Below are positions 19,294-54,794 of a stretch of DNA of 64,000 bases, piece after piece; the first letter of the stretch is position 1, and every line of letters begins with the position of its first letter. The position numbers and the translations under genes were made by a program. The stretch comes from an uncultured bacterium (lineage in GTDB: Bacteria > Bacillota_I > Bacilli_A > RFN20 > CAG-826), in NCBI GenBank assembly GCA_949285455.1, contig CASDXP010000002.1, forward strand, positions 10,188 to 74,187. The letters run 5' to 3'. The notes under the pieces were generated by a model that saw only the letters and a list, made by a program, of their open reading frames with translations, did not search any database and was not told the origin of the DNA.

Positions 19294-19345
19294 TCGTATT
19301 AAGTAATTCAGTAATGAATTGTCTAAATAATTTCTCTATAATATT

Positions 19346-19433: not shown

Positions 19434-19443
19434 TTTTAAAACG

Positions 19444-33312: not shown

Positions 33313-33313
33313 A

Positions 33314-33631: not shown

Positions 33632-33763
33632 ATTTACATTATAACAAAAAATACAAATACTGCATAAAATAAATTTAAGATAATATTTTAATTGCATAAA
33701 ATAAAAATACCTCTTATAGTGGCGGTATAAGATAATTTTTACTGCAAAATAGGGGTGTAATGG

Positions 33764-34345: not shown

Positions 34346-34349
34346 AATT

Positions 34350-34673: not shown

Positions 34674-35547
34674 ATATTGTTCTTGTTGTGGAAAGAAACT
34701 AGAAGTTAATAATAAATCGGATTGGTGCGACCCTTGTATCTATAAATTCTTTGGAACGCATACTTTACCTGACTTTTCTTCAATTGAAGAAGATAGTAAA
34801 AACTTATCGATCGATCATTTAAGTAAAGGCTATGCGATTCAAGGTGTACAAAAAAAGATATTACATTCTAATTACGTCATTAAATTTAACAATGAACGTT
34901 TTCCTAACATTGTTCTTCTAGAACATGTTTTGATGTCGATAGCGGAATCTTCACATATCGAAGTCGTGCCTCATGCAATTATAAAGGTTAAAGATGATAG
35001 ATATATTTATATAACGAAAAGGATTGATAGAAGTGGTGAGAAAAAATATCCGATGGAAGATTTTTGCCAACTTTCAAATAAACTCACAGAATATAAATAT
35101 AATGGTTCTTATGAACTTTGTTATCGCTTACCTTTATCTTATTCTTCACAAAGAACAATTGATTCATTAAAGTTTTTTAATATCGTGTTATTTTCTTATC
35201 TAACTGGTAACACTGATATGCATTTAAAGAACTTTTCTTTAATTGATCAAAGCCAAGGCTATAAACTCGCTCCAAGCTATGATCTTGTTCCTTCCGAATT
35301 TATTATCGATCAAAAAGAAATGGCTTTATCATTAAATGGGAAAAGACAAAATCTTACAAAGAATGATTTTATTCATTTTGGTGAATATATGAATATTAAT
35401 AAAGCCCAATCTAAGTTATTAATTGAAAGAATGATTAATAACCAATCAAAGTGGTTTACGATTATAGATCATTCGCCGTTAGATGAAGAAACTAAAGACA
35501 AATACAAACAATTTCTCAAAAATAAAATTGATAAGTTTAATGACTAA
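34666..35547 (+). CDS. HipT/HipA-like Ser/Thr kinase toxin core with an N-terminal CxxC-x9-CxxC zinc ribbon
   Basis: GNTDMHLKNFSLI...LAPSYDLVPS catalytic motifs of the HipA C-terminal domain. P-loop-like IQGVQKK. N-terminus CSCCGKKLEVNNKSDWCDPC. Confidence 0.85.
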   Translation: MNKYCSCCGKKLEVNNKSDWCDPCIYKFFGTHTLPDFSSIEEDSKNLSIDHLSKGYAIQGVQKKILHSNYVIKFNNERFPNIVLLEHVLMSIAESSHIEVVPHAIIKVKDDRYIYITKRIDRSGEKKYPMEDFCQLSNKLTEYKYNGSYELCYRLPLSYSSQRTIDSLKFFNIVLFSYLTGNTDMHLKNFSLIDQSQGYKLAPSYDLVPSEFIIDQKEMALSLNGKRQNLTKNDFIHFGEYMNINKAQSKLLIERMINNQSKWFTIIDHSPLDEETKDKYKQFLKNKIDKFND

Positions 35548-35802: not shown

Positions 35803-36783
35803 TTGTATACGCCACCATTTGAGATAAATGATGAAATGATCGCACTCATTTCTAGCATTATGGAAAGACTAGGTACTTTAAAGTATTTCGATAATTTTAA
35901 GCGCATGCCTGAACTACGTAAAGTAAGTAACATTAAATCCATTTGTGCTTCTTTAGCAATCGAAAATAATCAGCTAAATATTGACGAAGTAAGAGATGTT
36001 ATTAATGGAGTGGAAGTAATAGGTAACGAAAAAGATATTATCGAAGTTAAAAATGCCATGAAAGCATATGAACTTCTAGATCAAATCGATCCCTATGAAT
36101 TATATTCATTATTAAAAATACATGAAATAATGATGCATTCCTTAGTGGAAGATGCAGGCAAAATAAGAAATAAAGAAGTTGGAGTTTATAATGAATTAGG
36201 CGATGTTATTCATATGGCTCCGCCTCACTTTATTGCTAAACAAAAATTATATGAATTATTTGAATGGCTGAATAATGCTAAGACGCACATCCTTATCAAA
36301 TCTTCCGTTTTTCATTATGAATTTGAATTTATTCATCCTTTTATGGATGGGAATGGAAGAATGGGAAGATTTTGGCAAAGTGCCTTATTAACGCATTGGA
36401 AAAAGGCTTTTTCACTTATTCCGATTGAAAGTGTTATAAAAGAACGTCAAGACGAATATTATAATTCAATTATGCTTTCGACAAAAAATGGTAATTGTAA
36501 TGCTTTTATTATCTTCATGTTAAGGTGCATTGATGTGGCGATTAAAGATTTATTAAAAGACGCTAAAAGCTATGTTGAACATTTAAGCAATCAAATTAGA
36601 GATTTACTTAGAGTAATTAAAACGTATCCTAAATCAGCGAAAGAACTTATGAAAGATTTAGGATTAAAATCGCGCTTAGCATTTAGAAATAATTATTTAA
36701 ATCCTGCGCTTGAACTTGGTTTAATTAAACTCACAAACCCGGAAGCAAAAACTAGCAAAAATCAAAAGTATTACAAGCCTTAG
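35803..36783 (+). CDS. Fic-family protein (AMPylase-type), class II with an N-terminal inhibitory helix and a C-terminal wHTH (TTG start)
   Basis: HPFMDGNGRMGR Fic motif; SLAIEN inhibitory (S/T)xxxE(G/N) motif. AGGAGG RBS before the TTG. Confidence 0.85.
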   Translation: MYTPPFEINDEMIALISSIMERLGTLKYFDNFKRMPELRKVSNIKSICASLAIENNQLNIDEVRDVINGVEVIGNEKDIIEVKNAMKAYELLDQIDPYELYSLLKIHEIMMHSLVEDAGKIRNKEVGVYNELGDVIHMAPPHFIAKQKLYELFEWLNNAKTHILIKSSVFHYEFEFIHPFMDGNGRMGRFWQSALLTHWKKAFSLIPIESVIKERQDEYYNSIMLSTKNGNCNAFIIFMLRCIDVAIKDLLKDAKSYVEHLSNQIRDLLRVIKTYPKSAKELMKDLGLKSRLAFRNNYLNPALELGLIKLTNPEAKTSKNQKYYKP

Positions 36784-36853
36784 CAACGAAACGTTTCTTG
36801 ATTAGACATTAGTGAATCTTTTAATTTTTAAATTAAAGGAGGATATCTAATTT

Positions 36854-37087
36854 ATGATGATGTCAGATGAAGAAATTTTAGTAGCCTATTTTGGTGGTAG
36901 ACCTCGTTGGAGCGGTAATAAGCTTGATCGCATTGGTGATTTAAGAGTTCATTATAGCGGAAGTCGTATCTACAAAGTAGGGGATGCAAGAATTGAATAT
37001 TCCGGTAATAAGCTTTATAAGGTCAACGGTGAAAGAGTCCAGTGGAGTGGCTCTAGTGTGTATAAGATTGGTAATAGAAGGTTATAA
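36854..37087 (+). CDS. Small protein (77 aa) made of four 15-aa tandem repeats
   Basis: Repeat R-x-x-[WY]-SG-x-x-[LIV]-YK-[VI]-[GN] occurs four times. Strong RBS AAAGGAGGA. Confidence 0.6.
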   Translation: MMMSDEEILVAYFGGRPRWSGNKLDRIGDLRVHYSGSRIYKVGDARIEYSGNKLYKVNGERVQWSGSSVYKIGNRRL

Positions 37088-37201
37088 GTTAATCTTTTAA
37101 TCATTCAATTCGTTATTTATTTTAGGAACGTTAATGCTTTCATAACTTTTCATTCGGGAGAAGATAAATTAAACTTATAGCTATAAGGAATTGAAACGAA
37201 C

Positions 37202-38047
37202 ATGATAACAAAAGGTTTCATTGAAAAGGTATGTATTGCATTTAGTATTCTAAATTATGAAGTCGAAGATAAAGTTGATTTTCATGAGTTTGAAAAAAAC
37301 GCTGATAAAAGATTATCACGTTGTAAAGAATTAGCTGACGCAAAAGAAGTGGTGGCTCAAACAAGGTTTTGTTATAAACATTGGGATAAAATCGAAAAGA
37401 TTTTTTCTAATCCAAAAACTTTAAATTATTTTCAAATGTTGGAATGCGATGATGGAGATGATATTACTCAATTAAATGATGAGGAAGCACCTGGTACTTA
37501 TTGGATCACAAACGGGCTAACGGGATCATTAAAAGATATTGCTATCGCTAGCGCGACTTTTGATGATGAAACATTCTTTGTCAACACCAAAGCTAAGCAT
37601 TATAAAATATTTGGAGATGGTGAATTTTATATTTCTAATAGTTTTTGGTCATCGGGGAAAATGAAATTATTCGATAAATATAACAATCACATATGCGACA
37701 TTGTTACGACTAAAAATTACAATATTTTCCTAAAAAATAATAAATCAAATTATTACATCCCAAAATGTTTTGTTGACACTTTAATATTTGAAAGAAAATA
37801 CGTTGAAAGTTTAAGATCAGAAGATGATGTAGACACTAGTAAAATTCTTGCTTCTATTGAATGGGATTTAATTAAATCTGGTAAATATTATTCAGTTGCA
37901 AAATTACAAATTTATGAAATGATTGATGAAGAAAATGATTTAGAATTATTCTTACTTTTCGCTGTTTCAACTTTTTTAACTTACATCAATAAAAGCGAGA
38001 ATGAGGAAGCAGCGATAGCGTTTTTAATCACAAGACATTTTCGTTAA
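37202..38047 (+). CDS. Hypothetical protein
   Basis: ORF of 281 aa. It contains WSSGKMKLFDK, weakly resembling the repeat unit of the upstream 77-aa protein. Confidence 0.4.
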   Translation: MITKGFIEKVCIAFSILNYEVEDKVDFHEFEKNADKRLSRCKELADAKEVVAQTRFCYKHWDKIEKIFSNPKTLNYFQMLECDDGDDITQLNDEEAPGTYWITNGLTGSLKDIAIASATFDDETFFVNTKAKHYKIFGDGEFYISNSFWSSGKMKLFDKYNNHICDIVTTKNYNIFLKNNKSNYYIPKCFVDTLIFERKYVESLRSEDDVDTSKILASIEWDLIKSGKYYSVAKLQIYEMIDEENDLELFLLFAVSTFLTYINKSENEEAAIAFLITRHFR

Positions 38048-38054
38048 TAACAAT

Positions 38055-39161
38055 ATGAATATAGAACTATTCGAAAAAGAACTGAAAACAGCTAAAGCAA
38101 ATAAAGAAAATGGTTATTCACCATCATTTTTAGAAGTAGTGGGTAAGAGCAGTGATGAGGAATTAATCTCAAAATATCTTTCGTATTTATTCGACAACAA
38201 CATTAATTTACTCAACGAATTTATTCGATATGCTTACGGCGATAGTTTCGCCGAATTAAAAGAAATCAATTCGATTAATAACGAATTCGCCACTAATTCT
38301 AAAAGCCGCATCGATATATTTATTCAGGCTACAGATATTAAGAACTGTAAATGCATCATAGTAATAGAAAACAAAGTGTATACAGCTGAGCACGATAAAC
38401 AATGCACAAGTTATTTTAATTACTGTGAACAATATTATCCAAAGCACAAAAGATATTATTTTTTCTTATATCCTGATTTCAATTTAAAAATTAATCAAAT
38501 AAGCACGAACGAGTTTCATAAGATAACTTACACTAACTTGTTGAAGATATTAGATGGGCTTGATGATAATTCTAAATTTGAGGAAGATTTTATAAATTTA
38601 ATTAATAATCAATTAAGGAGTAATTCTATGAGCGAGTTACGCAAAATATTCATCGAAAATTATGAAATGATTGCAAATGAATTGAAGTCTCTTAACAAAG
38701 AATTAGAAACATTAATGAATAATTTTGCTAGTTTTTATGTTGGACAAAACAACGATGTTTTCGAACCATGCGAAAAAATGGAATCGGCGCGAACGTTACG
38801 TTTTTATGAGAAGAATGGGTGGTGGCATCCTAGCGAAGATAAAGACGAACAATATTATTTTTATATCGAACTTAAACGCGAAGGTAATTTAAAGTTTTAC
38901 TGTCAGCAAACGATAAAAATGTATTCAAGAAATGAAGATTGTAAGATTAGAAGATTTGTTAAAGAAAGATGTTTTAATAGGTATAAAATGGAAATAGCGT
39001 TTAAAGATTACGCAGTCTTACAACGAGTTGGCTTTACAATTGAAGAGAATAAATTATCCAATGATTGGAAAAGAGAATTGTTTAATTGGGCGATTGAGAC
39101 TTTAAACCAATTAAAAAAGGAACAAGAAAAGTTATTTGAAGAGTTTATTAATTTCAATTAA
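38055..39161 (+). CDS. PD-(D/E)xK nuclease superfamily protein (PDDEXK_4-like)
   Basis: SRIDIFIQ...CIIVIENKVYTAEHDKQCTSY carries the D...E-x-K core and the IENK signature. Confidence 0.6.
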   Translation: MNIELFEKELKTAKANKENGYSPSFLEVVGKSSDEELISKYLSYLFDNNINLLNEFIRYAYGDSFAELKEINSINNEFATNSKSRIDIFIQATDIKNCKCIIVIENKVYTAEHDKQCTSYFNYCEQYYPKHKRYYFFLYPDFNLKINQISTNEFHKITYTNLLKILDGLDDNSKFEEDFINLINNQLRSNSMSELRKIFIENYEMIANELKSLNKELETLMNNFASFYVGQNNDVFEPCEKMESARTLRFYEKNGWWHPSEDKDEQYYFYIELKREGNLKFYCQQTIKMYSRNEDCKIRRFVKERCFNRYKMEIAFKDYAVLQRVGFTIEENKLSNDWKRELFNWAIETLNQLKKEQEKLFEEFINFN

Positions 39162-39174
39162 TGGATGTCACCTT

Positions 39175-39600
39175 ATGAAAAAATACTACCTAGCCTATGG
39201 CTCAAATTTAAATCTAAACCAAATGAAATATAGATGTCCAAGCGCATCTAAAGTAGGAACTTATTATTTAAAAGGTTATTCTTTAGAATTTAGATGTTAT
39301 TTAACTATTGTTAAAAATGAAAATGGTATTGTTCCTTTAGGAATATTTGAATTAGATGATAAAGAAGAAAAATATCTTGATCGATATGAAGGTTATCCAA
39401 TTCTTTATCGTAAAGAAACATTTAAAGTTAAATTGAATGATGATAATAAAGATATAGAGGCTTTAATCTATATTATGAATGATGATCAATATCCAAAAAT
39501 AAAACCCTCTAAGAGTTATTTAGACACTTGCTTAGAAGGTTATAAAGATTTTGGATTTGATAATAAGTATTTATTAGAAGCGTTAGAAGAATTTAAATAA
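39175..39600 (+). CDS. Gamma-glutamyl cyclotransferase / AIG2-like protein
   Basis: YLAYGSNLNLNQMKYRCPSA...GYSLEF is the GGCT-fold YGSNL signature. Confidence 0.7.
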   Translation: MKKYYLAYGSNLNLNQMKYRCPSASKVGTYYLKGYSLEFRCYLTIVKNENGIVPLGIFELDDKEEKYLDRYEGYPILYRKETFKVKLNDDNKDIEALIYIMNDDQYPKIKPSKSYLDTCLEGYKDFGFDNKYLLEALEEFK

Positions 39601-39602
39601 CA

Positions 39603-40358
39603 ATGGTTAGTAACGAAGAACAAAAAAAGGAACTTCGAATAAAATTGTTAAAGTTGATACACAAAGTAGGCCAAAACTCTAGCAATCAAATTTTTACATT
39701 GTTTATAAGCGAACCAAATAAAAATTTAAAGCCCCTTTATAATTTATTTGCCGAAGCGTTTTTGTCTTTAAAAGGTTTTGTTACATTAATAAATGATGAG
39801 TGTTGGACACAAGCTGGTGCTATTTTAAGAATTACTTTAGAACAAGTTTCGATGCTTTTTTTGCTTTCTCAAAACAAAGAACTTATTGGTGAATATCTTC
39901 GTCTACATAATGAAAAAAGAAAATATTGGATTTTATCTACTAAAGAAAAAGAAAATTATTTGAAAGAATTAAGAGAAAAAGACCCAAGATTAAATAAACA
40001 CAACATTAACAATTATTTTGATTATAGTTGGTACAAGGATGAAGAAGGAAAATATACAAAAGAAACAATTATAAAAGCAGCACTTCTTGATGAATTTATT
40101 GATGATGTCGACAATTGGTACAATAAGTTTGCTCACGGACAAATTTCTATATTTGAGTTCAATAATAATAGTTGGGAAGTAATGAAAAAAATGGGAAATA
40201 GAATGACATCATCATCTTTTAAATTGTTTGATTTCTTGATTTGCTCATTTTGGAATTTTTTTGGAAGGAAAAAAATTGAATCAGTGAACTTACTTCCTTT
40301 ATTTTGTGAGTTCAATAAAAGTTATCAATTATTCAGCAAAACTTTTAAAAGCAAATAA
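39603..40358 (+). CDS. Hypothetical protein
   Basis: ORF of 251 aa lying 2 bp after the GGCT-like gene, which places it in the same operon. Confidence 0.4.
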   Translation: MVSNEEQKKELRIKLLKLIHKVGQNSSNQIFTLFISEPNKNLKPLYNLFAEAFLSLKGFVTLINDECWTQAGAILRITLEQVSMLFLLSQNKELIGEYLRLHNEKRKYWILSTKEKENYLKELREKDPRLNKHNINNYFDYSWYKDEEGKYTKETIIKAALLDEFIDDVDNWYNKFAHGQISIFEFNNNSWEVMKKMGNRMTSSSFKLFDFLICSFWNFFGRKKIESVNLLPLFCEFNKSYQLFSKTFKSK

Positions 40359-40367
40359 ATAAGATCA

Positions 40368-40895
40368 TTAACAAGTATAAGTAATGGTGATTGAGTCAAC
40401 TTCAATTATTCTAGTTTTACTTTTAATTTGGAAATAAGATACATGATCATTTAAAGTAAAAGCTGAACCATTTGGTAAGTTAGTTGTGTTTATTAATGCA
40501 TCAGGACTTTCACCATATGATAATGTTAAAGAACCTTTATTCTTTTCATAACTAACAAGAATAGATGTAATTCCATTAATGGGATCAATGTTATTAATAT
40601 AACCACCAACAAGTAATCTCATATAGCAAGTATCAGTTCTATATTTTTCAATATCATCCGCTTTAAACGTTATTGCGTTATTTAAAGCAGTGGTAACTTC
40701 AAATTCACCACCAAAAAAATTATCTTCTACCTCGTTTGTTGTTCCGTTCATTTCTAGTGTATATAAATTATTTTCACTTTGAGTAATGCTAACATTGTTA
40801 ACAAAATTATCGCCAAGCATTATTGCGGTAGGGGTAATTATTAACGAGATAGCGAACGCTGTTAGCGCCTTGAATGTTACATTTTTGTTTTTCAT
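40368..40895 (-). CDS. Secreted protein of unknown function
   Basis: N-terminal signal peptide MKNKNVTFKALTAFAISLIITPTAIM; beta-rich. Confidence 0.5.
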   Translation of the reverse strand: MKNKNVTFKALTAFAISLIITPTAIMLGDNFVNNVSITQSENNLYTLEMNGTTNEVEDNFFGGEFEVTTALNNAITFKADDIEKYRTDTCYMRLLVGGYINNIDPINGITSILVSYEKNKGSLTLSYGESPDALINTTNLPNGSAFTLNDHVSYFQIKSKTRIIEVDSITITYTC

Positions 40896-41044
40896 ATGCG
40901 TGTATTAGACTCCTTTTTCATAGTGGATGAAATAGTAGTATAGATCTAGTGAAATTGTCAAATTAAATTTGTAGACACGACTCTAGTTTCACTAAGGATC
41001 TATTCAAAAATAGTCCGATCTGTTAAACTGTTAACGGTGATAAT

Positions 41045-41949
41045 ATGAAGGCGAAGGCAAAGAAAATAGAATTATTTTTGTATAACGGAACTCTTGATGG
41101 CATTACATATGTAAAGGAATCTGGCGGTTGGGATTTTAACGGAATACTTTATCTGTGTCCTAGAGATTCGGTCTAAATGACGACGCTTGTGAAAAGAATG
41201 GCGTTTATTTGCTTTTATCTAGTAACAAGGTTTATGTAGGACAATCCATCAATCTTAAAAAGCGCATTAAACAACATTTACTCACAAAAGATTGGTGGGA
41301 GAAAGTAATCTTACTCACTTCCGAGAATGATTCTTTAAATTCATCATACATAACTTATTTAGAACATGCGCTCATCGATAAAGCTAATCAATGTGGCAGT
41401 TTAGATTGTGATAACAAAACAAACGTTAATACTGTTAAATTAGACAAGTTTGATATAACACTACTAGAACAATATTTAGATGAGGCTTTGTTTATACTCA
41501 AATTAATTGGAGTTGATGTATTCACCAAAACCAGATCAAAACCAATCATCAAATCAATTCCAACACCAACAAGTGAACAAATAGAACTTAGAGCAAAGTC
41601 AGAAGTCATCAAATATATTGAACAAGAACAGAAGTTTGTTTTAGGGAAAAACAAAGTTTATGCAAAACTTCAAGAAAAGAAAAACACCTTTTGGATTAAT
41701 CCAAGAGTGGATTTGTTAAATACCGGCTTTGATTTAATTCTTAACAATCAATTAGAAAGTAAAATATACATCTTAAGAATACCCGCGAACACGTTTAAAG
41801 CATCAAAAATCAAAGATGGCAATCTGATAATTAGGAAAGATAGACCTATTTATATCGACTTGAATATAGATGCGGATACTTTTGTTGATGTTAGAAGTAG
41901 GCAATCATTTAAATCATCGATTATTAAGGAAATTGATTACGCTATTTAG
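41045..41949 (+). pseudogene. GIY-YIG nuclease family gene (T5orf172-like) interrupted by a -1 frameshift near 41160-41176
   Basis: The complete GIY-YIG core NGVYLLLSSNKVYVGQSINLKKRIKQH lies in the frame of 41164-41949. The only start codon in that frame (TTG at 41209) falls after the GVY strand. A 43-aa ORF (41045-41176, MKAKAKK...) in the -1 frame supplies a plausible N-terminus. Confidence 0.55.
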
Positions 41950-42012
41950 ATTACTTCGTCTAGGATTGCAAATTTAAAAGTCTTGTTTTGAATTAATCAC
42001 ATTTTAAATATA

Positions 42013-43233
42013 ATGTTTAAGTATATGAAAAAGACTGAACAAGTTTTAAAAAACGGGAAAATAGTAATTGATTATGATCAGACGTTGACGACAAAAGAAA
42101 TTCGTAATTTATTTTTTGATTTATTTGAATCGAAAATTAAACAAGACGGTAAGCAATATGTTTTATACAATAAAATCGCAATCTTACCATGCAACGTTAC
42201 TTATTTAGGAAATCCACATCCAATTTATAAAAAAAGAATTCAATTAAAATCATATTATCCTGAATATCTAGAGAAAAATTCAGCAAACAACATCAAAACA
42301 ATGTATGTAGGAATTTACACATACAACAAAACAAGATTGTTTGTTGTTTTTGAACCAGATACATACGCGAATAAGAAAAGCCACAACTCTTCCGCGCATG
42401 TGTTCACAATTAATCTGCAATACGCTCAGCGAGCGGGTAGGTTTGATAAAATAGATGGGTTCGGTAATAAGATACATGTTTTTAACACCAACGAATTTAT
42501 TAGATATATTAAGACGCTTGCTTCTGATTCAACATATGTTGGATTAGATAGTTTAATGGAACTGATAAATGACTATATTTCATCGTTTGGAAGGACCATC
42601 CCAAAAGAGTGGAAGGGCATTGACTGTTATAATGAAATGCTTGCAGCAAACGATAATAACGCTAGGCAAGGTGAATGGCCCGGCTGGTATTTTGAATATT
42701 TGTTTAAAAAATATTTAGCAAATACAAATTCTACTAAAATTAAGTGGTGTAATTCTAAGGAAAAGGGCGGTGTTGATTTAGACGTTAAATTCGTCAACCT
42801 TAATTGGACTTACGGCGACTTAAAAGCCGATCAAATAAACCACGATATTTTAGGAAATTCATTCGACACTCTGGATAAAGTTATTAATGATAATCATGGG
42901 ACAGTATTCTATATTTGTTGTTTATATGAGGCAGAATTAGATTCTAAGCACCATTATGAAGTTACTAGATATTGGAATGATTTCGTGCGTGAGAAAAGCA
43001 AGAGATACACAAATATTCAAGACTTAGAACAAAGATATGGGAAACGTATGAAATATTCTGTAAAACCTCAAAAGTTGTGCATTTTAAAAATAGATGACAT
43101 AATGTACGACATTCTAAAACAAACCCCATTTACGCAAGGAATTAATTCTGATGGCAGCACTAGAAAGCCAAAATTGAAGGTGCGAAAAGACATGATAAAA
43201 GCACTTACAATTTATTCTCAGCAAATTAATTAA
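42013..43233 (+). CDS. Candidate Type II restriction endonuclease, paired with the downstream C5 methyltransferase
   Basis: 406 aa with no close family recognisable by eye. GGVDLDV...GDLKAD is compatible with a PD-(D/E)xK core. Same strand as the MTase, 40 bp upstream of it. Confidence 0.45.
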   Translation: MFKYMKKTEQVLKNGKIVIDYDQTLTTKEIRNLFFDLFESKIKQDGKQYVLYNKIAILPCNVTYLGNPHPIYKKRIQLKSYYPEYLEKNSANNIKTMYVGIYTYNKTRLFVVFEPDTYANKKSHNSSAHVFTINLQYAQRAGRFDKIDGFGNKIHVFNTNEFIRYIKTLASDSTYVGLDSLMELINDYISSFGRTIPKEWKGIDCYNEMLAANDNNARQGEWPGWYFEYLFKKYLANTNSTKIKWCNSKEKGGVDLDVKFVNLNWTYGDLKADQINHDILGNSFDTLDKVINDNHGTVFYICCLYEAELDSKHHYEVTRYWNDFVREKSKRYTNIQDLEQRYGKRMKYSVKPQKLCILKIDDIMYDILKQTPFTQGINSDGSTRKPKLKVRKDMIKALTIYSQQIN

Positions 43234-43272
43234 AATTTAGGTAGCTTTTTGTCATTTTATTTTATAAAATAA

Positions 43273-44457
43273 GTGTATATGAAAAAACAAAAATTTAAAT
43301 TCATAGATTTGTTCTCTGGGATTGGTGGTTTCCATCAAGCATTAACAGCATTTGGTGGAAAGTGTGTTTTAGCGTCTGATATTAATCCTAACGCAATCAA
43401 AGTTTATAAAAATAATTATGGCATCGATTCTAATATTGATGTAAGAGACATTAAAAATGAAGATGTTCCAGACCACGATGTACTGTGCGCTGGTTTTCCA
43501 TGCCAAGCATTTTCAAAGGCTGGTAAAAGAGAAGGTTTTATGGATCAAACCAGAGGAACGCTTTTCTTTGAAATAGCGCGAATATTAAATGTCAAACATC
43601 CAAAATATATTCTGTTAGAAAACGTTAAAAACTTAGTAAGTCATGACGGTGGACATACATACGAAGTTATATGTAACACATTAAAAAACCTAGGTTACCG
43701 CATTCCCGCCAAACCATTAATCCTTTCTCCTCATCAATTTGGTATTCCTCAAGTTAGAGAACGTGTTTATATTCCTGGTATTTACGACCTAGAGAATGCC
43801 AATAAACCAATTGAAATCAAATTTGGTAATCTTTTAGATAAAAAAGATAACAGTATCGACACGATTTTAGATTCCAGTGAAAATAATCCAATTTACTCTA
43901 TAAATGAGCATACTGAAAAAGTGCTTACGGCGTGGGATGAATTTTACCATGGGCTAGATATTAAAGTTATTGGCTTCCCGGTCTGGACCTCATATTTTAA
44001 AACTAAAAAGATTGATCAATCTTATCCCGAATGGAAACAGGATTTTGTAAGAAAAAATCGTGAATTATATCTAAGAAACAAAGAATTTATCGATGGTTGG
44101 TTTAAAAAATGGAATAATCTTAAAGATTTTACACCCACTGAACAAAAATTTGAGTGGCAGTGTGGCACAACAATCAAGTCGATTTGGGAAGGGGTAATTC
44201 AAATAAGGCCCTCGGGAGTAAGAGTAAAAAAGCCAGATATTTTTCAGGCCTTGGTGGCTCTTGTTCAAACACCTATAATTGGTAAATACAAAAGAAAATT
44301 ATCTGTTCGAGAAGCAGCAAGATTACAATCATTTCCCGATACATTTATTCCAGATGAAAATATGCAGCAGGCATATAAACAATTTGGCAATGCGGTTAAC
44401 GTAAAAGTTGTAAAAGAAATTTTTGCAAAATTAATTAAAACAGCGACAAGTCGTTGA
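43273..44457 (+). CDS. DNA (cytosine-5)-methyltransferase
   Basis: Motif I FSGIGGF, motif IV GFPCQAFS, motif VI ENVKNL, motif VIII QxRxR, motif X GNAVNV. Confidence 0.93.
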   Translation: MYMKKQKFKFIDLFSGIGGFHQALTAFGGKCVLASDINPNAIKVYKNNYGIDSNIDVRDIKNEDVPDHDVLCAGFPCQAFSKAGKREGFMDQTRGTLFFEIARILNVKHPKYILLENVKNLVSHDGGHTYEVICNTLKNLGYRIPAKPLILSPHQFGIPQVRERVYIPGIYDLENANKPIEIKFGNLLDKKDNSIDTILDSSENNPIYSINEHTEKVLTAWDEFYHGLDIKVIGFPVWTSYFKTKKIDQSYPEWKQDFVRKNRELYLRNKEFIDGWFKKWNNLKDFTPTEQKFEWQCGTTIKSIWEGVIQIRPSGVRVKKPDIFQALVALVQTPIIGKYKRKLSVREAARLQSFPDTFIPDENMQQAYKQFGNAVNVKVVKEIFAKLIKTATSR

Positions 44458-44470
44458 AGTCGCTGTTTCA
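44439..44470. terminator. Bidirectional hairpin between the convergent MTase and GHKL genes
   Basis: ACAGCGAC-aagtcgttgaa-GTCGCTGT. Confidence 0.5.
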
Positions 44471-44473
44471 TTT

Positions 44474-46672
44474 CTAGTATTGAATTAAATTCGAAGCAAG
44501 AATACTCTTTGAAAAATCAAGTATTATCTTGTTTTTGTCTTCTACTTTTTCAATCGAATCGTATGCCTTGTCCATAAATAATGCAAACAAACATATAGGT
44601 TCGATAATTTTTGCTTTAATTTCATTTATTTTTTCATCAGAAGTTGAGAAGCCAAATATTTCTGCTTTCATTTGGTCAGAATTTAGACATAAATAAACAT
44701 CTATTTTCTTATCAGATTCATTTTTTACTATGTCGCATATTAGTTCACTTTCTTCCAATTGGTGGATGTGAAGATCGAGTATTTTTTTGTCTTCTTTACT
44801 CTCTGTGCTTGGAGTGTTATTTTCTAAAATTTTTATACTTGCTATGTTACTTTCGAGACATAATTTATTGCCTTTATAATATTGAAATTGAATTTGATGG
44901 AGACCTGGCTTTAACGCCCCGCCATCTAGCGTATATCTTATTCTTCCATTCATGTAAGAAGCCGAAAACGAGTAGTTATTTGTATCATTTATCAGCATGT
45001 AAATTAGAGCGTCTTCGTTTGTGTGTTTTTGAGCCCCTGTTTTTAGATAAATATTTATTGCCTGATCTTTATAATACTGATTATTGTCGTTCAAAATTGT
45101 CAACTCTTGTATTTCGTGCATGTAATCTTCATCGATTGTTGGCTTAACATGGCTTACGGATTTGCTGGTCGAAACAAGACCTCCTGTTTTTAGCAGTCTA
45201 TTATATTTACTTTTTACTCTATCTCCAATTTCTTTAGTAATGGTGTTGTCAACATCGTGTGCAACCGCTTTTTCCGAAATCAAACGATTAATTTCTTTTA
45301 ATTCATCTATATTTTTAATAGCTTTGAATACCTCATCTAAGAAGCCTCTAGTCTTATCGGTTTCCCTAATTCTTGAGCGATCAGATGTGAAAAATTTATA
45401 TTTTTCCATACCTAACACGTCAAGATTAATAACTATTAAAAGACGATATTGTAAGAAATTTAATCCAGTTGCGTTTTTAAATTTATTAAAACTTTCAGAA
45501 GTGATTGTTTGTCCATTAACTGTGTAGATGATTGGGTCTTCAGTTACATTTAATCTTTGAAAGATTTGCTTCGATTCGCTTGCGCTACCCCATTTAGATT
45601 CATCATCAGGAAGAATAATATAATAATCAATATTGTAGGTTTGATTGTTAACTTCAACTTTTAATGTTCCAGACAAATCTTTTTTCACATATTTAGAATT
45701 TTGCAATCTTGCAAAAGTCCCATGAGCATATCTATTTTGATTTGATGTGTTATCTTTAAAATTCGCTCTGTTATCTACAATTTTAACAGGTAAACCTATA
45801 TTAAATAAATTGGTGTCGATGTAATTTATTAACATATGTTCTTTTGCAATATCGTTCGTTCTATATTCTTTAGATATATCTGTTTCAACCATCCTTACTA
45901 GAGTTCCTGACTCACTTTTAATAAAAGTAGTAAGATAACTAGATTCATTATCCATTTGGTCTTCCAAATTGGCTTCAGGAATTTCATCGTCAATAGTTAA
46001 ATAAACGTAACAACTATTTTTGTAATCAGATAATTCAACCTCTTTGATGACTGTAAAATAATAATGGTTATTTTGTTTAGATATAATGATAGTAGCGTAA
46101 GTGAACGGAAGTGAAGTGGAACCTCCTTGTCCAAACGCACCTATTAAATATGCTTTTTCCCTTGATAGTTTGTTACCAGCGTTGAGCGATAGTATTGTTT
46201 GAGGAAAGTTTTTGCCAGATATGCCGATTCCCTGATCAATAACGTCAAAAGTTATTTTGGTTGTTCCAGTTGCATCGTTAGCTGCTAAAATTACTTGATC
46301 AGCCGCATCAAAAGTCTGAACTTTAAAATGCGTTCCTTTAGACAAATTCGAAAAATTATCGTAGTACCTAGGGAATGCTTTTTTAATGATGTTAGAAGCA
46401 CTTGATGCACCAACTATATTATTTTTAATTTTCTGCTTCTCTATAACAGCATCAATTGCATTTGTAATTCTTTCAATAATGCCTTTTTCGCCACGCTTCA
46501 AGATGTTAATAGAGGAGCCGTTTGAACTGTTGTTGCCTAAAAACTTCCAGTACCTAGATATATTATTATAGTTAAGATTTTTTTCTTCCAATGTATAACC
46601 TGTTAATTTTTTAATAAAAGAATCTACATCAGACGCTTTGTAAATGTTTAATATTTCGTTTAAGTCAAACAT
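44474..46672 (-). CDS. MORC-like GHKL ATPase (HATPase_c_3). Start placed at MFDLNEIL (46672), behind an AGGA..GGGGA RBS.
   Basis: Bergerat-fold motifs: N-box ERITNAIDAV, G1 VIDQGIGISG, G2 GAFGQGGSTS. About 730 aa. Confidence 0.75.
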   Translation of the reverse strand: MFDLNEILNIYKASDVDSFIKKLTGYTLEEKNLNYNNISRYWKFLGNNSSNGSSINILKRGEKGIIERITNAIDAVIEKQKIKNNIVGASSASNIIKKAFPRYYDNFSNLSKGTHFKVQTFDAADQVILAANDATGTTKITFDVIDQGIGISGKNFPQTILSLNAGNKLSREKAYLIGAFGQGGSTSLPFTYATIIISKQNNHYYFTVIKEVELSDYKNSCYVYLTIDDEIPEANLEDQMDNESSYLTTFIKSESGTLVRMVETDISKEYRTNDIAKEHMLINYIDTNLFNIGLPVKIVDNRANFKDNTSNQNRYAHGTFARLQNSKYVKKDLSGTLKVEVNNQTYNIDYYIILPDDESKWGSASESKQIFQRLNVTEDPIIYTVNGQTITSESFNKFKNATGLNFLQYRLLIVINLDVLGMEKYKFFTSDRSRIRETDKTRGFLDEVFKAIKNIDELKEINRLISEKAVAHDVDNTITKEIGDRVKSKYNRLLKTGGLVSTSKSVSHVKPTIDEDYMHEIQELTILNDNNQYYKDQAINIYLKTGAQKHTNEDALIYMLINDTNNYSFSASYMNGRIRYTLDGGALKPGLHQIQFQYYKGNKLCLESNIASIKILENNTPSTESKEDKKILDLHIHQLEESELICDIVKNESDKKIDVYLCLNSDQMKAEIFGFSTSDEKINEIKAKIIEPICLFALFMDKAYDSIEKVEDKNKIILDFSKSILASNLIQY

Positions 46673-46683
46673 ATTTTTATCCC

Positions 46684-47889
46684 CTAATCCTCTAATGTTG
46701 TAAACAATATACACATGAAGAGATTTTGCCATAGCATAGGTTCTTTTCCTGTAGCATTTGGATTATTGCCTTTTCTTCTTGAAACGTCGACAGTAGCAGA
46801 GGCTAAATCAACACCGCATTCTTCTAATGTTTCGAATGGATTACGTTTCCATGTGTAGAAGCCATTTTCTTCAACAACTAGCGCTCTAAAAGCCGCAAGA
46901 ATAGGATATAGAAACCCATTGGGAGAGATATATTGCTTGTCATTTTCATAAAATTTTGTTTTAAAAGATGGGCCAGTTTTATGCGTAGCGACTCCTGTCA
47001 CAGCCCCATATTTTCCGCCAACTGCCACGCTTCTATTGTAGTAAATGCCTATATTTTCCTCTATTTTGTCGTATAGTTTGCAAATATCTGGCAAAATTTT
47101 AGACATTTTATAATATGGATTGTCTTTTTGGTGGTTGTTATATTCATTATAAGCTTTTATATAATATTCTAAGCATGTTGCCTTTCCGGAATAAGATGTA
47201 ATTGGATATGATTTGGCTTTTATTGGATATCGTTCAATGTTAAACATATTCATTAACGCTAAAATGTCCAGCACATCAATTCTTTTTGCGTCGTTTTCCT
47301 TATAACTAATGTCTTTATAAAATGGTTCATATTCAAGAGCGTTCTTAATTAGGTCAAAATGCTCTCTTAGTTCTTCCATAGATTTATCTTTTACTTGAAC
47401 TGATGTATTCCTTGCGGCTGCCAAGTCTTCAAAAAAATCCTCCACCCCAGTTAATACCTCTATTTTTACAAATTGTTCGCCACGTTCAAGCAGATGTCTG
47501 TTTTGAAGGATTATTTTGTAAGTATGACCCCCGTCAACGTTTCCGTGAACATCTAGATCACTAAAAACAATAGTACATTCGTTAGAAACGTTATTGTAAG
47601 TTATAGATTCAGCCGATAAGAGTAGACCACGATTCAACAAATAGAAATTTAGATCAACGTGATTTGTAAGCGAGGTTTGAATTTTCTTTGCTACGTTTGT
47701 AGTTAGCTTTTGCTCACGAGGGTTTGTACCCATCGGGATTGCATCGGGAACGTCTAAAACGTCACAAATTAATTCGTACATTTCCGGTTTCTTATCAATA
47801 TCGTTTTTTGACCCAATATATGGGTTTGGAATTTTTCTAAAGGAAGAAACCTTAAACTTTAGAATTCCATTTTTTGTTTCTTTGTTCAT
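46684..47889 (-). CDS. Partner protein of the GHKL ATPase; possible ParB/DGQHR (DndB-like) fold
   Basis: NPREQK followed by NVDGGHTY resembles the Arg and DGQHR motifs of DndB/DUF262-like proteins. 11 bp upstream of the GHKL gene on the same strand. Confidence 0.4.
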   Translation of the reverse strand: MNKETKNGILKFKVSSFRKIPNPYIGSKNDIDKKPEMYELICDVLDVPDAIPMGTNPREQKLTTNVAKKIQTSLTNHVDLNFYLLNRGLLLSAESITYNNVSNECTIVFSDLDVHGNVDGGHTYKIILQNRHLLERGEQFVKIEVLTGVEDFFEDLAAARNTSVQVKDKSMEELREHFDLIKNALEYEPFYKDISYKENDAKRIDVLDILALMNMFNIERYPIKAKSYPITSYSGKATCLEYYIKAYNEYNNHQKDNPYYKMSKILPDICKLYDKIEENIGIYYNRSVAVGGKYGAVTGVATHKTGPSFKTKFYENDKQYISPNGFLYPILAAFRALVVEENGFYTWKRNPFETLEECGVDLASATVDVSRRKGNNPNATGKEPMLWQNLFMCILFTTLED

Positions 47890-47981
47890 GGAAATCCTTT
47901 CTCTGCTAATTATTGCTAGCAGTAACTCAACGCTAACGGCTTCAGCCCTAGCAATTTTAGTTTACATGATCATTGGAAAAA

Positions 47982-47995
47982 GATCTAGATCTAGA
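47982..47995. promoter_or_regulatory. Perfect 14-bp palindrome ATCTAGATCTAGAT in the divergent promoter region
   Basis: The sequence is its own reverse complement. It lies between the minus-strand operon start (47889) and the HTH gene (48059). Confidence 0.6.
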
Positions 47996-48058
47996 TATGT
48001 GCCAAATATAGCACATATATTATTTGATCTTTATTTGCTGCTCGAATATAATTTAGAT

Positions 48059-48307
48059 ATGATTGAATCAGCACATGATTATCAAGTTAAAATTGGTCAA
48101 AATATAAAGCGGTATAGATTAGAAACAGGAATTTCGCAACGAGAAATGGAAAAGAAATATTGCATTAGTCGTACATATTTATGCAAATTGGAATCAGGTA
48201 AGCACAGTCCGTCAATAGAAACTATTAGACTGCTTGCTAAAGCATTTGGTATAGCCCCATCTATGTTTTTTATTGATTCCGAAGGAAACGAAATTCCATA
48301 TTTATAA
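48059..48307 (+). CDS. Small XRE/Cro-type HTH regulator (82 aa), controller-protein-like
   Basis: IKRYRLETGISQREMEKKYCISRTYLCKLESGKHSPSIETIRLLAKAF is a classic HTH_3 domain. Confidence 0.7.
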   Translation: MIESAHDYQVKIGQNIKRYRLETGISQREMEKKYCISRTYLCKLESGKHSPSIETIRLLAKAFGIAPSMFFIDSEGNEIPYL

Positions 48308-48598
48308 GGTTCCGATTACAAAAATATCAAAAAGAGCAGTGTGCCTAAATTGGCGATAATTAAATCGCGATAATTAACAAAAATTAAATTGACATTAACA
48401 ACTTTTAGTGATACTCATAAAGTTTCCAATTTTGATGTATGTTAAAACATCATGTGTTAGCTAGTTCAACGCCCACCCCCTCACCATCGCGTTATAATTG
48501 AACTGCTACTGAACTGCTATAAAGAAATTGAGCAATGTATATGTAGGGGTGAGCAAATTTATAATACCGTGTAAATAGCAGTTCACCGAAAAAAACAC

Positions 48599-48631
48599 TT
48601 GTCAAAAATGTGCGGGGGGGGGGTATAATTT
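48599..48631 (+). promoter_or_regulatory. Sigma-70-type promoter with a G10 homopolymer in the spacer
   Basis: TTGTCA (48599-48604), a 19-nt spacer that includes G10 (48614-48623), then TATAAT (48624-48629). The ATG is at 48635. Confidence 0.55.
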
Positions 48632-48634
48632 TTT

Positions 48635-49201
48635 ATGATGAGTGAACCAACAATTGAGTACAGTTTTAATAATCAATCCAACTTAGACGCAAATACCAAA
48701 ATACTAATCGTCGGCACTTTTACCAGCCCGTTAGGGATATACAATGGCTACTTTTATGGTGCCCCGCGTAATTGCGTGTATAAAAGATTAGATGAATTAT
48801 TTGACGCTGGAAATATCTTTCAAACTTTAAAGAAAAGATTAATAGATGCAAACGATAATAAAAATGAAGTAATAGAACAAATAAATAAAGAACTTAGCAA
48901 AAGAAATGTTGCTTTTTTCGATGTTGTCGAAGAATGCATAAGAAAAATACTTAATAGTCCTTACGACAAAGATCTTAAGGTTATTAAATATTCTCTTGAT
49001 ATGTTTAAAGAAAAAAGTTGCTCGCTCAAATTTATTATTTTTACTTCAAATACTGCAAAAAAATGGTTTATAGATAACGGATTTCAAAATTATTACGCTC
49101 TCAAGGAAAACAATCATGCTGTTTTAAATATGAGGGGCAAAAACAATGCGGAAAATGTAAAAAAATTCTTACTTATAAATTCACTAGTGAAGGAGGAATA
49201 A
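48635..49201 (+). CDS. Uracil-DNA-glycosylase-superfamily (MUG/TDG-like) fold protein
   Basis: ILIVGTFTSP...GYFYGAPRNCVYKRLDELF parallels E. coli Mug VLFVGINPG...GHHFAHPSNRFWKLL. FIIFTSNTA corresponds to motif B. Confidence 0.5.
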   Translation: MMSEPTIEYSFNNQSNLDANTKILIVGTFTSPLGIYNGYFYGAPRNCVYKRLDELFDAGNIFQTLKKRLIDANDNKNEVIEQINKELSKRNVAFFDVVEECIRKILNSPYDKDLKVIKYSLDMFKEKSCSLKFIIFTSNTAKKWFIDNGFQNYYALKENNHAVLNMRGKNNAENVKKFLLINSLVKEE

Positions 49202-49204
49202 ATT

Positions 49205-49975
49205 ATGGGATTTATTAAAGAATATTTTAAGTTATTAGCTAGCTTATTTGGTTTTAAATCAAAAAAACAAGTGCAAAATAGTGTGCCTCAAAAGCCTGAC
49301 TTAGTAAGAACAGAAGAACAATTCAAAAAAATAGTTGATTCTGTCAAAGCGTATCTTGATGAAGATTATCAAAAAATATTTGGTGTATATGTTTTATATA
49401 TTTATAAGCAAGATGGTTTTGAGTATAATCCTCGTGTTAGCGACGATAATTATTACATACTGAACGATGCTATTACCGCAGCGGTTTTGGATAAAATTTT
49501 TGGTAGGCACGATTTATTTGATTTTGGTGAGGACTTTACTAAAAATGAATTTCCTTCAATAATGTGGTATTACAATTACAATGATTGGTATGTTCTTAAA
49601 GGCAACCCCATGCTTCTTTGGATTAAAAATTATAGCGAAAAATATCCCGATATTAAAATTACCCATCCTATGCTTTGGAGTGTTAGAGCCTTTTTAGAAG
49701 GTGTGGTGAAATCAAATCAAGAAAGAGGCGAAAGTGAAGAATCTTGTATGATTAGAATTCGTAAACTGTTACTTGATTATGTTAAAGATAATCCACTCAA
49801 CAGAATTTTATATGCATCAAATATAAATAAATTTGAAAGTAATTGGACTTTGTATAACGATTATATTTTGTCTTACTATCGTTGTGGAAAAAACAACTTT
49901 AACGAAATATTCTTTGGTAGCGATTCTTCTTATGAATTATTGTCTCTCCAAGAAATTCAAAACAATTTGTATTAA
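49205..49975 (+). CDS. Hypothetical protein with the N-terminal motif MGFIKEYFKLLASLFGFKSKKQ
   Basis: ORF of 256 aa. Its N-terminus is paralogous to the ORF starting at 53905. Confidence 0.45.
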   Translation: MGFIKEYFKLLASLFGFKSKKQVQNSVPQKPDLVRTEEQFKKIVDSVKAYLDEDYQKIFGVYVLYIYKQDGFEYNPRVSDDNYYILNDAITAAVLDKIFGRHDLFDFGEDFTKNEFPSIMWYYNYNDWYVLKGNPMLLWIKNYSEKYPDIKITHPMLWSVRAFLEGVVKSNQERGESEESCMIRIRKLLLDYVKDNPLNRILYASNINKFESNWTLYNDYILSYYRCGKNNFNEIFFGSDSSYELLSLQEIQNNLY

Positions 49976-49992
49976 AATTTTGATTCAATTTT

Positions 49993-50850
49993 GTGATGGA
50001 CGTTAATAAACAATATTCTATATCCTCAATTCTATTAATTATTGCCGGGGTGTTTCTTTTCGCAGGCATAGTAAACCTAGTTACTATAATCTATATGCGC
50101 CTAGCAATTATTGATTTTTGTATCGCGTTTATTCTATTATTACCCGGCATATATTTGCATAGCAAATCGAAAGAAAAGCGCGATATTAATATAAAAACAA
50201 AACTATCCGACATTAATCATCATTTTCAAAACATTTTCAAAAATAAACATGATAATAGTTCGAAAGGAAGAGCAATTCTAAACGCCTTTATTCAAATTGT
50301 TTTACCAACAATCGTTGTTTACAGCTTAGTTCTTGTAGACGCCATTATGGTCATGTTTTTTGTAGGTGCATTGTCATATGTTTTAATATTGCCATTAGGA
50401 ATTTTAGTTTTTCTATTTGTTTTTGGCGCGTTCGGTATCATGGGCTTTGCTCATGGACATAAAAACACTCAATATATAGAGATTGATGGTAAAATAGTAA
50501 AAATAAGTAAGCCAGGCCAAAATGGTGGTGCTGGAGTAGCCTTCTTATTATCGATGTTTTGTTTTGTTTTTTGTGTTCCCATTTCAATTGTGTTCTTTAT
50601 TTTCAGCACAGTCAAAATAAGTGCTAGCGAAGAATATTGTAAGCAAGTAAATTCGTATAGAAATAATTCCTATTTGCGTTTTATGCTAGCGTTTATTGTT
50701 TCCTCAACTTTGCTATTAATCGGCTTTGGCATTTCCTTTATAGACATTAACATCTTAATGCTTGGTGAATCATTTGATAATATTTGGCAAATATTTACTG
50801 CTAGATTTAATGAAGTCATGAGCGTTATTTCTAACTTCTTTAACTACTAG
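49993..50850 (+). CDS. Polytopic membrane protein
   Basis: Six to seven hydrophobic helices; 285 aa. Confidence 0.5.
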   Translation: MMDVNKQYSISSILLIIAGVFLFAGIVNLVTIIYMRLAIIDFCIAFILLLPGIYLHSKSKEKRDINIKTKLSDINHHFQNIFKNKHDNSSKGRAILNAFIQIVLPTIVVYSLVLVDAIMVMFFVGALSYVLILPLGILVFLFVFGAFGIMGFAHGHKNTQYIEIDGKIVKISKPGQNGGAGVAFLLSMFCFVFCVPISIVFFIFSTVKISASEEYCKQVNSYRNNSYLRFMLAFIVSSTLLLIGFGISFIDINILMLGESFDNIWQIFTARFNEVMSVISNFFNY

Positions 50851-50941
50851 TTAATTAACCAATATCAAATCATTTTGTTTAATTATGAAAGTTTTTGCGT
50901 TTTAGACATCTTAAAAATAAATAAAATCATTAAGAAAAACA

Positions 50942-51356
50942 GTGGCTGAAATTACGTATAACCACATAGAAGGAATTAAAGGTGCGGAAGCAGTTGCGAT
51001 GTGCATCTATCTTGCTTTAAAAGGCGTTTCAAAAGAAGAAATAAGAAAAAGAATGATTGATGAGTATTACCCTATAATCGAAACATTAGATTTTGATGAC
51101 TTAGTGAAAAATTATGAATTTCCTGAAATATGTCAAAAATCTGTACCGCTAGCTATCTATTGTTTTAATATCAAAAGATATTGAAGATGTAATTAGAAAT
51201 TGCGCAGCGATTGGAGGGGACTGATACACTACTAGTGCGATTGTGGAGGCGTATTATTCAAAAGAAACACTATCAGATTTTGAAGATAAATATATGTATC
51301 TTATGATTGATCCCCAAGTGGAAGAATTAATAAAAAAATTTCATAAAACAACCTGA
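50942..51356 (+). pseudogene. ADP-ribosylglycohydrolase (DraG/ARH-like) remnant, N-terminally truncated with an in-frame stop
   Basis: SVPLAIYCF...NCAAIGGD*YTTSAIVEAYYS matches the ARH C-terminal motif tVPaAlyaf...GGDTDT...GAyyG. It is interrupted by TGA at about 51222. Confidence 0.55.
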
Positions 51357-51437
51357 AGTAATAAATATAAAGACAAATAATAATATAAATGACTATTTAT
51401 TCATGAATAACAAACAATTTTGATATAGTTTAATTAA

Positions 51438-54767: not shown

Positions 54768-54794
54768 TGAATGGTGTTTTGTTATCATATACAT

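Follow-up and report, generated by a model that had tools for sequence, protein, structure and literature searches.

A 77-residue protein encoded in a 64,000-nucleotide stretch of DNA from an uncultured bacterium (contig CASDXP010000002.1, positions 10,188 to 74,187; hereafter the window) founds a new, unannotated protein family. Its gene is the open reading frame (ORF) at 36854-37087, directly downstream of a Fic gene, and is referred to here as mini; L-numbers denote the loci that we collected and P-numbers the homologous proteins. The mini family probably has a role in defence islands. We infer, with a probability of about 0.42, that mini is a small, basic, non-enzymatic protein that accompanies and modulates DNA-directed immunity. 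The mini gene and its parts are as follows, with residues counted in amino acids (aa).

36836..36842, + strand: ribosome-binding site AAGGAGG of mini, read in the sequence
36854..37087, + strand: mini gene, 77 aa, 8.9 kDa, isoelectric point (pI) 9.9, undescribed family (homologues, dN/dS, AlphaFold2)
36866..36892, + strand: predicted N-terminal helix, aa 5-13, DEEILVAYF, before the conserved GG (DSSP on the AlphaFold2 model)
36899..36943, + strand: predicted hairpin repeat 1, RPRWSGNKLDRIGDL, aa 16-30 (self-identity, unit hidden Markov model (HMM))
36944..36988, + strand: predicted hairpin repeat 2, RVHYSGSRIYKVGDA, aa 31-45 (self-identity, unit HMM)
36989..37033, + strand: predicted hairpin repeat 3, RIEYSGNKLYKVNGE, aa 46-60 (self-identity, unit HMM)
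37034..37078, + strand: predicted hairpin repeat 4, RVQWSGSSVYKIGNR, aa 61-75 (self-identity, unit HMM)

The two ORFs, Fic and mini, lie where a first, sequence-only reading of the window had placed them, with mini behind a GGAGG site (36838-42) 11 nt 5' of the first of three ATGs; counted from the ATG that is common to the homologues, the protein has 75 aa. Nearly all homologous mini loci have a GGAGG-type site before the start. That reading had also made conservation in related loci a test of the ORF, and homologues were found. Across 19 full-length orthologues (171 pairs), the median proportions of nonsynonymous (pN) and synonymous (pS) differences were 0.11 and 0.74, the latter being saturated, and the ratio of nonsynonymous to synonymous rates (dN/dS) of orthologues against the window copy was 0.08-0.15. 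Because synonymous sites are saturated while the protein and its ribosome-binding site are conserved, we conclude that the gene is real. A collection of 15 billion proteins does not contain the exact window sequence, and mini is thus unannotated; the gene is often missed by gene callers or given a wrong start. The window protein has a net charge of +5.6, and a basic pI of 9.3-9.9 is kept family-wide. Y12 and G14 are invariant throughout the close-family alignment (A1), D5, E6, A11 and F13 are invariant in a further alignment (A2) and reach at least 90% conservation in A1, and the GG at residues 14-15 is essentially invariant.

Self-alignment bore out the four 15-residue tandem repeats that had been proposed for the protein: at a lag of 15 residues, 19 of 62 positions are identical, while 20,000 shuffles reached at most 18 at any lag from 5 to 39, and an HMM of a single unit matches mini four times (independent E values 1e-7 to 5e-9 each). 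At the DNA level the copies are only 42-56% identical, and Tandem Repeats Finder detected no DNA tandem array in the gene; the repeat is therefore old and maintained at the protein level. The AlphaFold2 model consists of helix 5-13 and eight strands forming four hairpins (predicted local distance difference test (pLDDT) 90.7, predicted template modelling score (pTM) 0.74). Mini is thus predicted to fold as one helix followed by four 15-residue β-hairpin repeats in an eight-stranded meander, which agrees with the β-hairpin repeat mini-protein suggested earlier. A similar unit, WSSGKMKLFDK, had been pointed out in the next protein (37202-38047); the unit HMM misses it even at E≤100, so this likeness is due to chance.

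The expectation that mini would have no obvious family held up as well. Nothing in Pfam, NCBIfam, PADLOC, PHROGs or the Protein Data Bank (PDB) matched it above threshold, with no match at all in NCBIfam and PADLOC. The best sub-threshold matches were DUF7204 (E=0.0018; 19 bits, cut-off 27) and phrog_1489 (E=8e-4, no significant stretch), and the sole match in a PDB profile search was a designed Kelch-like repeat protein (7Q58, E=7e-4, no single significant stretch). Foldseek with the model returned no significant fold match (E>0.7), and we found no description of the family in the literature. MORN/MORN_2 repeats and the YG repeats of cell-wall and choline-binding proteins are, like those of mini, short, Gly- and aromatic-rich hairpin repeats. 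However, MORN units have a period of ~23 residues and YG hairpins one of ~20, and mini, with a period of 15, gave no Pfam match to either at E≤1; the loose MORN resemblance noted before thus finds no support. YD/Rhs and teneurin hairpin sheets gave weak scores and have no sequence relationship to mini, which has a period of 15 and 77 residues, as against more than 1000, and no shell.

A word-indexed search recovered 18 protein clusters with two, three or four repeats (45, 60 and ~75 aa), longer calls being start-codon miscalls. HMMER over 1.84 billion representatives gave 60 matches, among them divergent ~76-aa minis with the N-terminus MTxEEALIKYYGG and larger many-repeat proteins, several of which have, on inspection, hydrophobic, signal-peptide-like N-termini. 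The number of repeats in the mini family ranges from one (30 aa) to four and changes by in-register deletions. The variants (L037 8001-8096, L038 555-650, L012-L016 and P0011-13) always keep the N-terminal helix and the GNKRM-type C-terminal end. The larger repeat proteins include P0023 (346 aa), P0029, P0035, P0036, P0039 and P0046; besides the signal-peptide-like N-termini of several, there are weak BVU_2266-like matches, and one protein with an MGN... N-terminus and a Cys-rich tail could be eukaryotic. Because the same 15-residue repeat is found in these larger proteins, the hairpin repeat is older and wider than the mini family.

Loci were gathered from exact-protein look-ups, a one-genome-per-species scan, metagenomes (for the divergent subgroup) and IMG/VR. 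The species-representative scan, limited to two peptide patterns, found the mini gene in 22 of 185,579 genomes, all of them metagenome-assembled genomes of uncultured Erysipelotrichaceae, Bacilli, Mollicutes and Clostridia. The known carriers of the family are exclusively uncultured gut, rumen and wastewater bacteria whose records bear one of these four labels. No homologue was found in plasmid and phage record collections, and the IMG/VR search returned a single contig in which the mini gene lies at a host/prophage junction.

Neighbours were identified by ORF clustering together with Pfam and PADLOC annotation, and 38 informative, non-identical contexts were counted, some of which are phylogenetically non-independent. 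A recurrent partner lies directly beside the mini gene in 27 of the 38 (~70%); it is mostly a defence nuclease, usually downstream and on the same strand. Outside the mini gene, the window has no DNA similarity to the first 16 loci (L001-L016), and in an all-against-all comparison this gene is the sole DNA shared by most pairs of loci. The recurrent partners are PD-T4-3 (also called CMoRE), GmrSD, PDDEXK_4/PDC-S26, UzuA and a DUF7662 protein, distributed as follows.

PD-T4-3, GIY-YIG nuclease (PADLOC, E 1e-54 to 1e-61): downstream of mini with an overlap or short gap in L011/26, L020, L041 and L055/56; after a DUF7662 gene in L024, L025, L034 and L035; upstream of mini in L036, L058 and L059/60; a remnant in L032
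PDDEXK_4/PDC-S26 nuclease (PF14281, PADLOC): L012-16, L018, L019, L031, L037/38 and L048-51; second gene after mini in the window and L063
GmrSD/HEC-05 (PADLOC, E 1e-130): L017, L029, L046 and L047
UzuA (PADLOC, E 1e-43 to 1e-49): L021, L022 and L023

These partner families also adjoin minis that share only 46-62% identity with P0026, whose own identity to the window protein is ~47%. It had been suggested that mini might co-occur with Fic or with the genes downstream of it. For the downstream genes this proved right in part: PDDEXK_4, as well as GIY-YIG and GmrSD nucleases, recur directly beside mini, and the GGACT gene does not. For Fic it did not, as outside the window species (window, L017 and L063) a Fic gene lies near mini in only two lineages (L031 and L041), each arranged differently. 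Fic is thus a fellow resident of the island and not a partner of mini.

Mini genes are exchanged together with nucleases in cassettes of ~2 kb between unrelated genomes. L024, L025, L034 and L035 share, at 96-98% identity, a 2.1-kb block consisting of mini, a DUF7662 gene and PD-T4-3; their flanks are unrelated and their locus G+C content (GC) ranges from 27 to 40%. A unit of mini and PD-T4-3 is 73% identical in L011, L020 and L026, where similarity stops at the borders of the unit. In hosts of higher GC (L031, L036 and L011), the GC at third codon positions (GC3) of mini tracks the downstream island and not the upstream flank.

In about a third of the loci, mini's own promoter is made up of a TTGACA-like box, 5-10 nt, a tract of G6-G11 and a TATAAT-like box (L011, L020, L021, L024, L026, L028, L032, L033, L041, L047, L061 and L062). 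All 10 G/C runs of at least 8 nt in 452 kb of related loci sit 31-63 nt 5' of a mini start, between -35- and -10-like boxes. Tract length differs within near-identical pairs (G9 in L011 and G11 in L026; G8 in L024 and G5 in L025), and L023 has a degenerate, apparently fixed form of the promoter. Known parallels are homopolymer-tract phase-variable promoters, such as the poly-G/C spacers of Neisseria porA and opc, and phase-variable restriction-modification systems. Like such promoters, those of many mini relatives have a tract, here of G5-G11, in the -35/-10 spacer, and its length differs between near-identical loci; in contrast to them, the switch is undescribed for the mini family or for these uncultured Firmicutes, and it is absent before the window mini. 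The poly-G spacer of the relatives therefore has the layout of a slipped-strand phase-variation switch and, judged from the promoter sequences, may actually switch.

A terminator-like hairpin lies 11-30 nt after the mini stop codon where the next gene is PDDEXK_4, DUF7662 or GmrSD. None precedes PD-T4-3, which overlaps mini or follows it after a gap of 3-47 bp. In the window, 114 bp separate mini from the next gene, and no terminator was found there. Apart from the poly-G promoter and unrelated terminators, a k-mer and visual search of 160 nt upstream and 110 nt downstream detected no shared operator or attC-like site. The 5' untranslated regions of L024 and L047, whose minis belong to different family subgroups, have a common element, TAGGTTAAC(A)CGAT(A/G)ACC, between the -10 box and the ribosome-binding site; it is duplicated in L047 and may be an operator or RNA element.

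The only long homopolymer of the window itself stands before another operon of the island, in a promoter of the same design as the poly-G promoters of minis elsewhere (48599-48635 in all: TTGTCA, 9 nt, G10 at 48614-48623, TATAAT, 5 nt, and the ATG of a 188-aa ORF). Because the -10 box is so near the ATG, the mRNA at 48635 may be leaderless. Three unannotated genes (48635-50850) lie behind this promoter, the third of which resembles a multi-pass membrane protein. The 188-aa protein (48635-49201) has the motif ILIVGTFTSP...YFYGAPRN and a weak, non-significant alignment to PDB 2L3F (E=0.46); it recalls family-6 uracil-DNA-glycosylase-like proteins, and we presume that it may be a DNA glycosylase-type defence gene.

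We propose that the mini gene is a self-standing module, with its own promoter and often its own terminator, and that its product would bind nucleic acid or the nuclease. In this way mini could limit or adjust either modification-dependent nucleases or the access of these enzymes to DNA. Its action would be generic, not partner-specific, and stochastically switched in many relatives; in the window, mini marks the left edge of a 14.3-kb strain-variable island. A more specific form of this proposal, which we regard as unlikely, is that mini heads plug-in cassettes as a generic, stochastically switched modulator for at least four unrelated nuclease families (GIY-YIG CMoRE, GIY-YIG UzuA, GmrSD and PD-(D/E)xK). 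Such a modulator could hold the nuclease in check, recognise modified or glucosylated DNA, or divert phage anti-restriction proteins as a decoy.

Several observations weigh against the modulator proposal. The link of mini to a nuclease or to DNA is a putative one, and the AlphaFold2 model was built on a shallow alignment of 16 sequences. A terminator-like hairpin lies 3' of mini in 29 of 50 loci, so mini is often its own transcription unit and co-transcription with the next gene is not the rule. The poly-G lengths were taken from assemblies and not from reads, and the window mini has neither a poly-G promoter nor a terminator. No defence neighbour is recognisable in 11 of the 38 contexts (L001, L010, L002, L027, L030, L039, L042, L052, L053, L057 and L069). 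Near-identical minis have different partners (PDDEXK_4 in L018, UzuA in L021), and any interaction between mini and its partner must therefore be generic. GmrSD is a modification-dependent system, and GmrSD/HEC-05 and UzuA act as single genes elsewhere; PADLOC likewise models both as single proteins. PD-T4-3 has been characterised as CMoRE, a single-component type IV enzyme that cuts DNA with 5-hydroxymethylcytosine (5hmC) or glucosyl-5hmC (PMC12923530).

Within the last of the loci listed as lacking a defence neighbour, L069, a WYL-domain protein (653-1930) ends immediately 5' of the mini homologue P0008. WYL regulators are typical of defence loci.

The main rival, which we consider somewhat unlikely, is that mini is a passive landmark, a gene whose function is unrelated to immunity and which happens to flank a recombination or integration hotspot at which prophages and defence genes build up, so that their adjacency to mini would be incidental. 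Strain breakpoints do fall at its ends, at the 3' end between the window and L017 and at the 5' end between L001 and L010, and in most pairs of loci DNA similarity is confined to the gene. Many metagenome contigs stop 25-97 bp 3' of mini (L004, L006, L013, L065-68, L070 and L071), and in L002 and L040 the start of a prophage packaging module lies ~450 bp 3' of the gene. In the chimeric ORFs P0018, P0020 and P0021, the first ~40 residues of GmrSD or a D12 methylase are fused in frame to mini repeats, and the 11 contexts without defence neighbours fit a landmark too. However, mini is not a core gene, being present in 22 of the 185,579 species-representative genomes by the two-pattern scan, and the flank upstream of it is also non-syntenic. 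Mini travels with nuclease cassettes that stay 96-98% identical across genomes whose GC differs widely, in L031, L036 and L011 its GC3 goes with the downstream island, the partner families reappear on one side or the other of mini at ~50% protein identity, and it has a dedicated promoter of the phase-variable type. A landmark would explain the breakpoints, but not the co-transfer between genomes, the persistence of the partner families or the dedicated, switchable promoter. Of mini, the chimeric ORFs keep the final two to three and a half repeats, and they resemble recombination scars at the junction.

Three further explanations carry less weight. Mini could be an antitoxin or immunity protein that neutralises an adjacent toxic enzyme (Fic here, nucleases elsewhere) in the manner of a promiscuous type II antitoxin. 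We consider this improbable, even though mini is a small upstream gene with a stop/start overlap or a 3-17 bp gap to PD-T4-3 in L011, L020, L026 and L041, and a single small-gene family is paired with several effector families. Mini is damaged beside intact PDDEXK_4 or PD-T4-3 (its start is lost in L031 and L034, and 30 aa are left in L037 and L038), and intact beside fragmented partners (L015, L024 and L025). In L001 and L010 it has no effector beside it, and elsewhere a terminator often stands between mini and its partner. In the window, it lies downstream of a Fic gene whose product already has an inhibitory helix in cis, and mini itself has no (S/T)xxxE(G/N) motif. An exported peptide, in which MSDEEILVAYFGG would be a double-glycine leader and the repeats a secreted bacteriocin-like core, is very improbable. 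The GG at 14-15 is essentially invariant and EEILxxYxGG loosely resembles the double-glycine leader consensus, but the segment is a predicted helix within a confidently modelled fold, the neighbours are cytoplasmic nucleases, and no C39-peptidase ABC exporter was found among the Pfam-annotated neighbours or the scanned window ORFs, the loci covered by ORF clustering alone not all having been scanned. The chance that mini is a spurious ORF or a DNA-level repeat element is negligible. Its shortness, its omission by gene callers and the absence of its exact sequence from the protein collection would fit that explanation, which is effectively refuted by the saturated synonymous sites together with the conserved protein and ribosome-binding site; nor is there a DNA tandem repeat or an Rfam family, and the fold prediction is confident.

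Two specific antitoxin classes were tried as candidates and rejected. A class I Fic antitoxin (VbhA-type) does not fit, as none of Glu 6, 7, 48 and 60 of mini has Ser/Thr four residues before it and Gly/Asn after it. A type II antitoxin does not fit either, with mini broken beside intact nucleases and alone in L001 and L010.

Among known systems, the Panacea/PanA proteins have hyper-promiscuous antitoxin domains, with one small family beside several unrelated effectors. Mini likewise adjoins several unrelated effector families, but it is dispensable beside intact nucleases, need not lie upstream of its partner, and shares no sequence similarity with such domains. The controller (C) proteins that accompany restriction-modification systems belong to the Xre-type helix-turn-helix class and have a defined C-box operator. 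They resemble mini in that their genes are small, lie just upstream of nuclease genes of unrelated families or sometimes overlap them, and are carried on mobile cassettes; both would plausibly tune nuclease expression. Unlike C proteins, mini is predicted to be all-β but for one helix, a terminator often follows it, and no shared operator was found.

The island at the end of the window mini and its first genes are as follows.

37081..51368, no strand: strain-variable defence island, 14.3 kb (the window/L017 alignment ends at 37080 and resumes at 51369)
37202..38047, + strand: 281-aa orphan, first gene of the island (no Pfam, NCBIfam, PADLOC or PHROG match)
38055..39161, + strand: PDDEXK_4 nuclease, PDC-S26-like (PF14281 E=3.4e-9; PDC-S26 E=6e-13)

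The left edge of the island lies two codons before the mini stop codon. The sister strain L017, which matches the window at 86-91% identity, has 2.1 kb with GmrSD in place of the island, and L063 is colinear with the window only up to 40394. Besides the 281-aa orphan, which has only three close homologues among 5.8 billion clusters, the island holds PDDEXK_4, GGACT, DUF5677, a PDC-S14 GIY-YIG gene, AIPR, an Xre regulator, and a type II restriction endonuclease together with a Dcm methylase. In relatives including L012, L018, L019, L031, L037 and L049, PDDEXK_4 directly follows mini. No integrase or transposase was found among the scanned ORFs of the island, nor did its borders show direct repeats. 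The segment 41209-47889 carries the PDC-S14 GIY-YIG gene, the type II endonuclease (MTaX1) with its Dcm methylase, and AIPR beside a 752-aa protein without family. Just past the island lie an AAA_14/DUF4143 ATPase (51884-53074; PDC-S01 E=1e-141) and a second, unrelated Fic with a Bro-N domain (54771-55643; PDC-S04 E=2e-111), so the defence region reaches beyond the island. A bacterial small signal recognition particle (SRP) RNA at 19343-19440 (Rfam, 63 bits) indicates that the window is chromosomal; Rfam found no known RNA in the mini region.

The Fic gene upstream of mini has the following features.

35803..36783, + strand: Fic adenosine monophosphate (AMP)-transferase, class II, SoFic-like, 326 aa (Pfam, PADLOC, PDB 4RGL)
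35950..35967, + strand: inhibitory motif SLAIEN, aa 50-55, which fits (S/T)xxxE(G/N); same chain, N-terminal to the core
36334..36369, + strand: active-site motif HPFMDGNGRMGR, aa 178-189, inside the Pfam Fic match
36589..36771, + strand: C-terminal Fic-like_C winged helix, aa 263-323 (PF21247 E=1.7e-18)

By its sequence, the Fic gene is a complete class II, SoFic-type AMP-transferase and an ordinary new member of a known family. It starts with TTG, with AGGAGG 9 nt upstream. The Pfam Fic domain (PF02661) matches above cut-off (E=4.5e-19; core aa 101-196) and contains an HxFx(D/E)GNGRxxR active-site motif, and the SLAIEN helix lies in cis upstream of this core, as class II membership demands. 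The protein aligns over its full length to PDB 4RGL (E=3e-74, residues 2-323), with SLAIEN kept in the alignment, and more distantly with FICD and SoFic. Motif positions, Pfam and the 4RGL alignment thus corroborate the active site, the in-cis inhibitory helix and the C-terminal winged helix that the sequence-only reading had described. With the class II proteins (4RGL, SoFic 3EQX/3ZCN and FICD), the Fic gene product shares HPFx(D/E)GNGR, the N-terminal SxxxEN helix and the C-terminal winged helix. The PADLOC SoFic model matches it (E=3.9e-42), but it falls short of the NCBIfam SoFic equivalog (61.5 bits, cut-off 550); the likeness to SoFic concerns the Fic gene alone and not mini, and an anti-phage role is a possible one. 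Because the inhibitory helix sits in its own chain, Fic needs no separate partner. Fic is independent of mini and would be one of several single-gene defence modules in the region. Upstream of Fic lies a HipBA-like module (33314-35547) in which HipA is split into Couple_hipA (34350-34673) and HipA_C (34666-35547). Compared with L017 and L063, the window holds a different insert of ~1 kb there (33312-34349), with a 127-aa ORF that has an Xre-like segment and a 193-aa gene.

Together, these data describe a family that is under strong purifying selection, has no counterpart in the libraries searched, and recurs beside modification-dependent and other defence nucleases. If mini does modulate nucleases, several "single-gene" defence systems would share an accessory factor in uncultured Firmicutes-type bacteria, and direct tests of phase variation in type IV-like immunity would become possible. 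If it is no more than a passive landmark, mini would still pinpoint a junction of defence-gene exchange to within a few bases.

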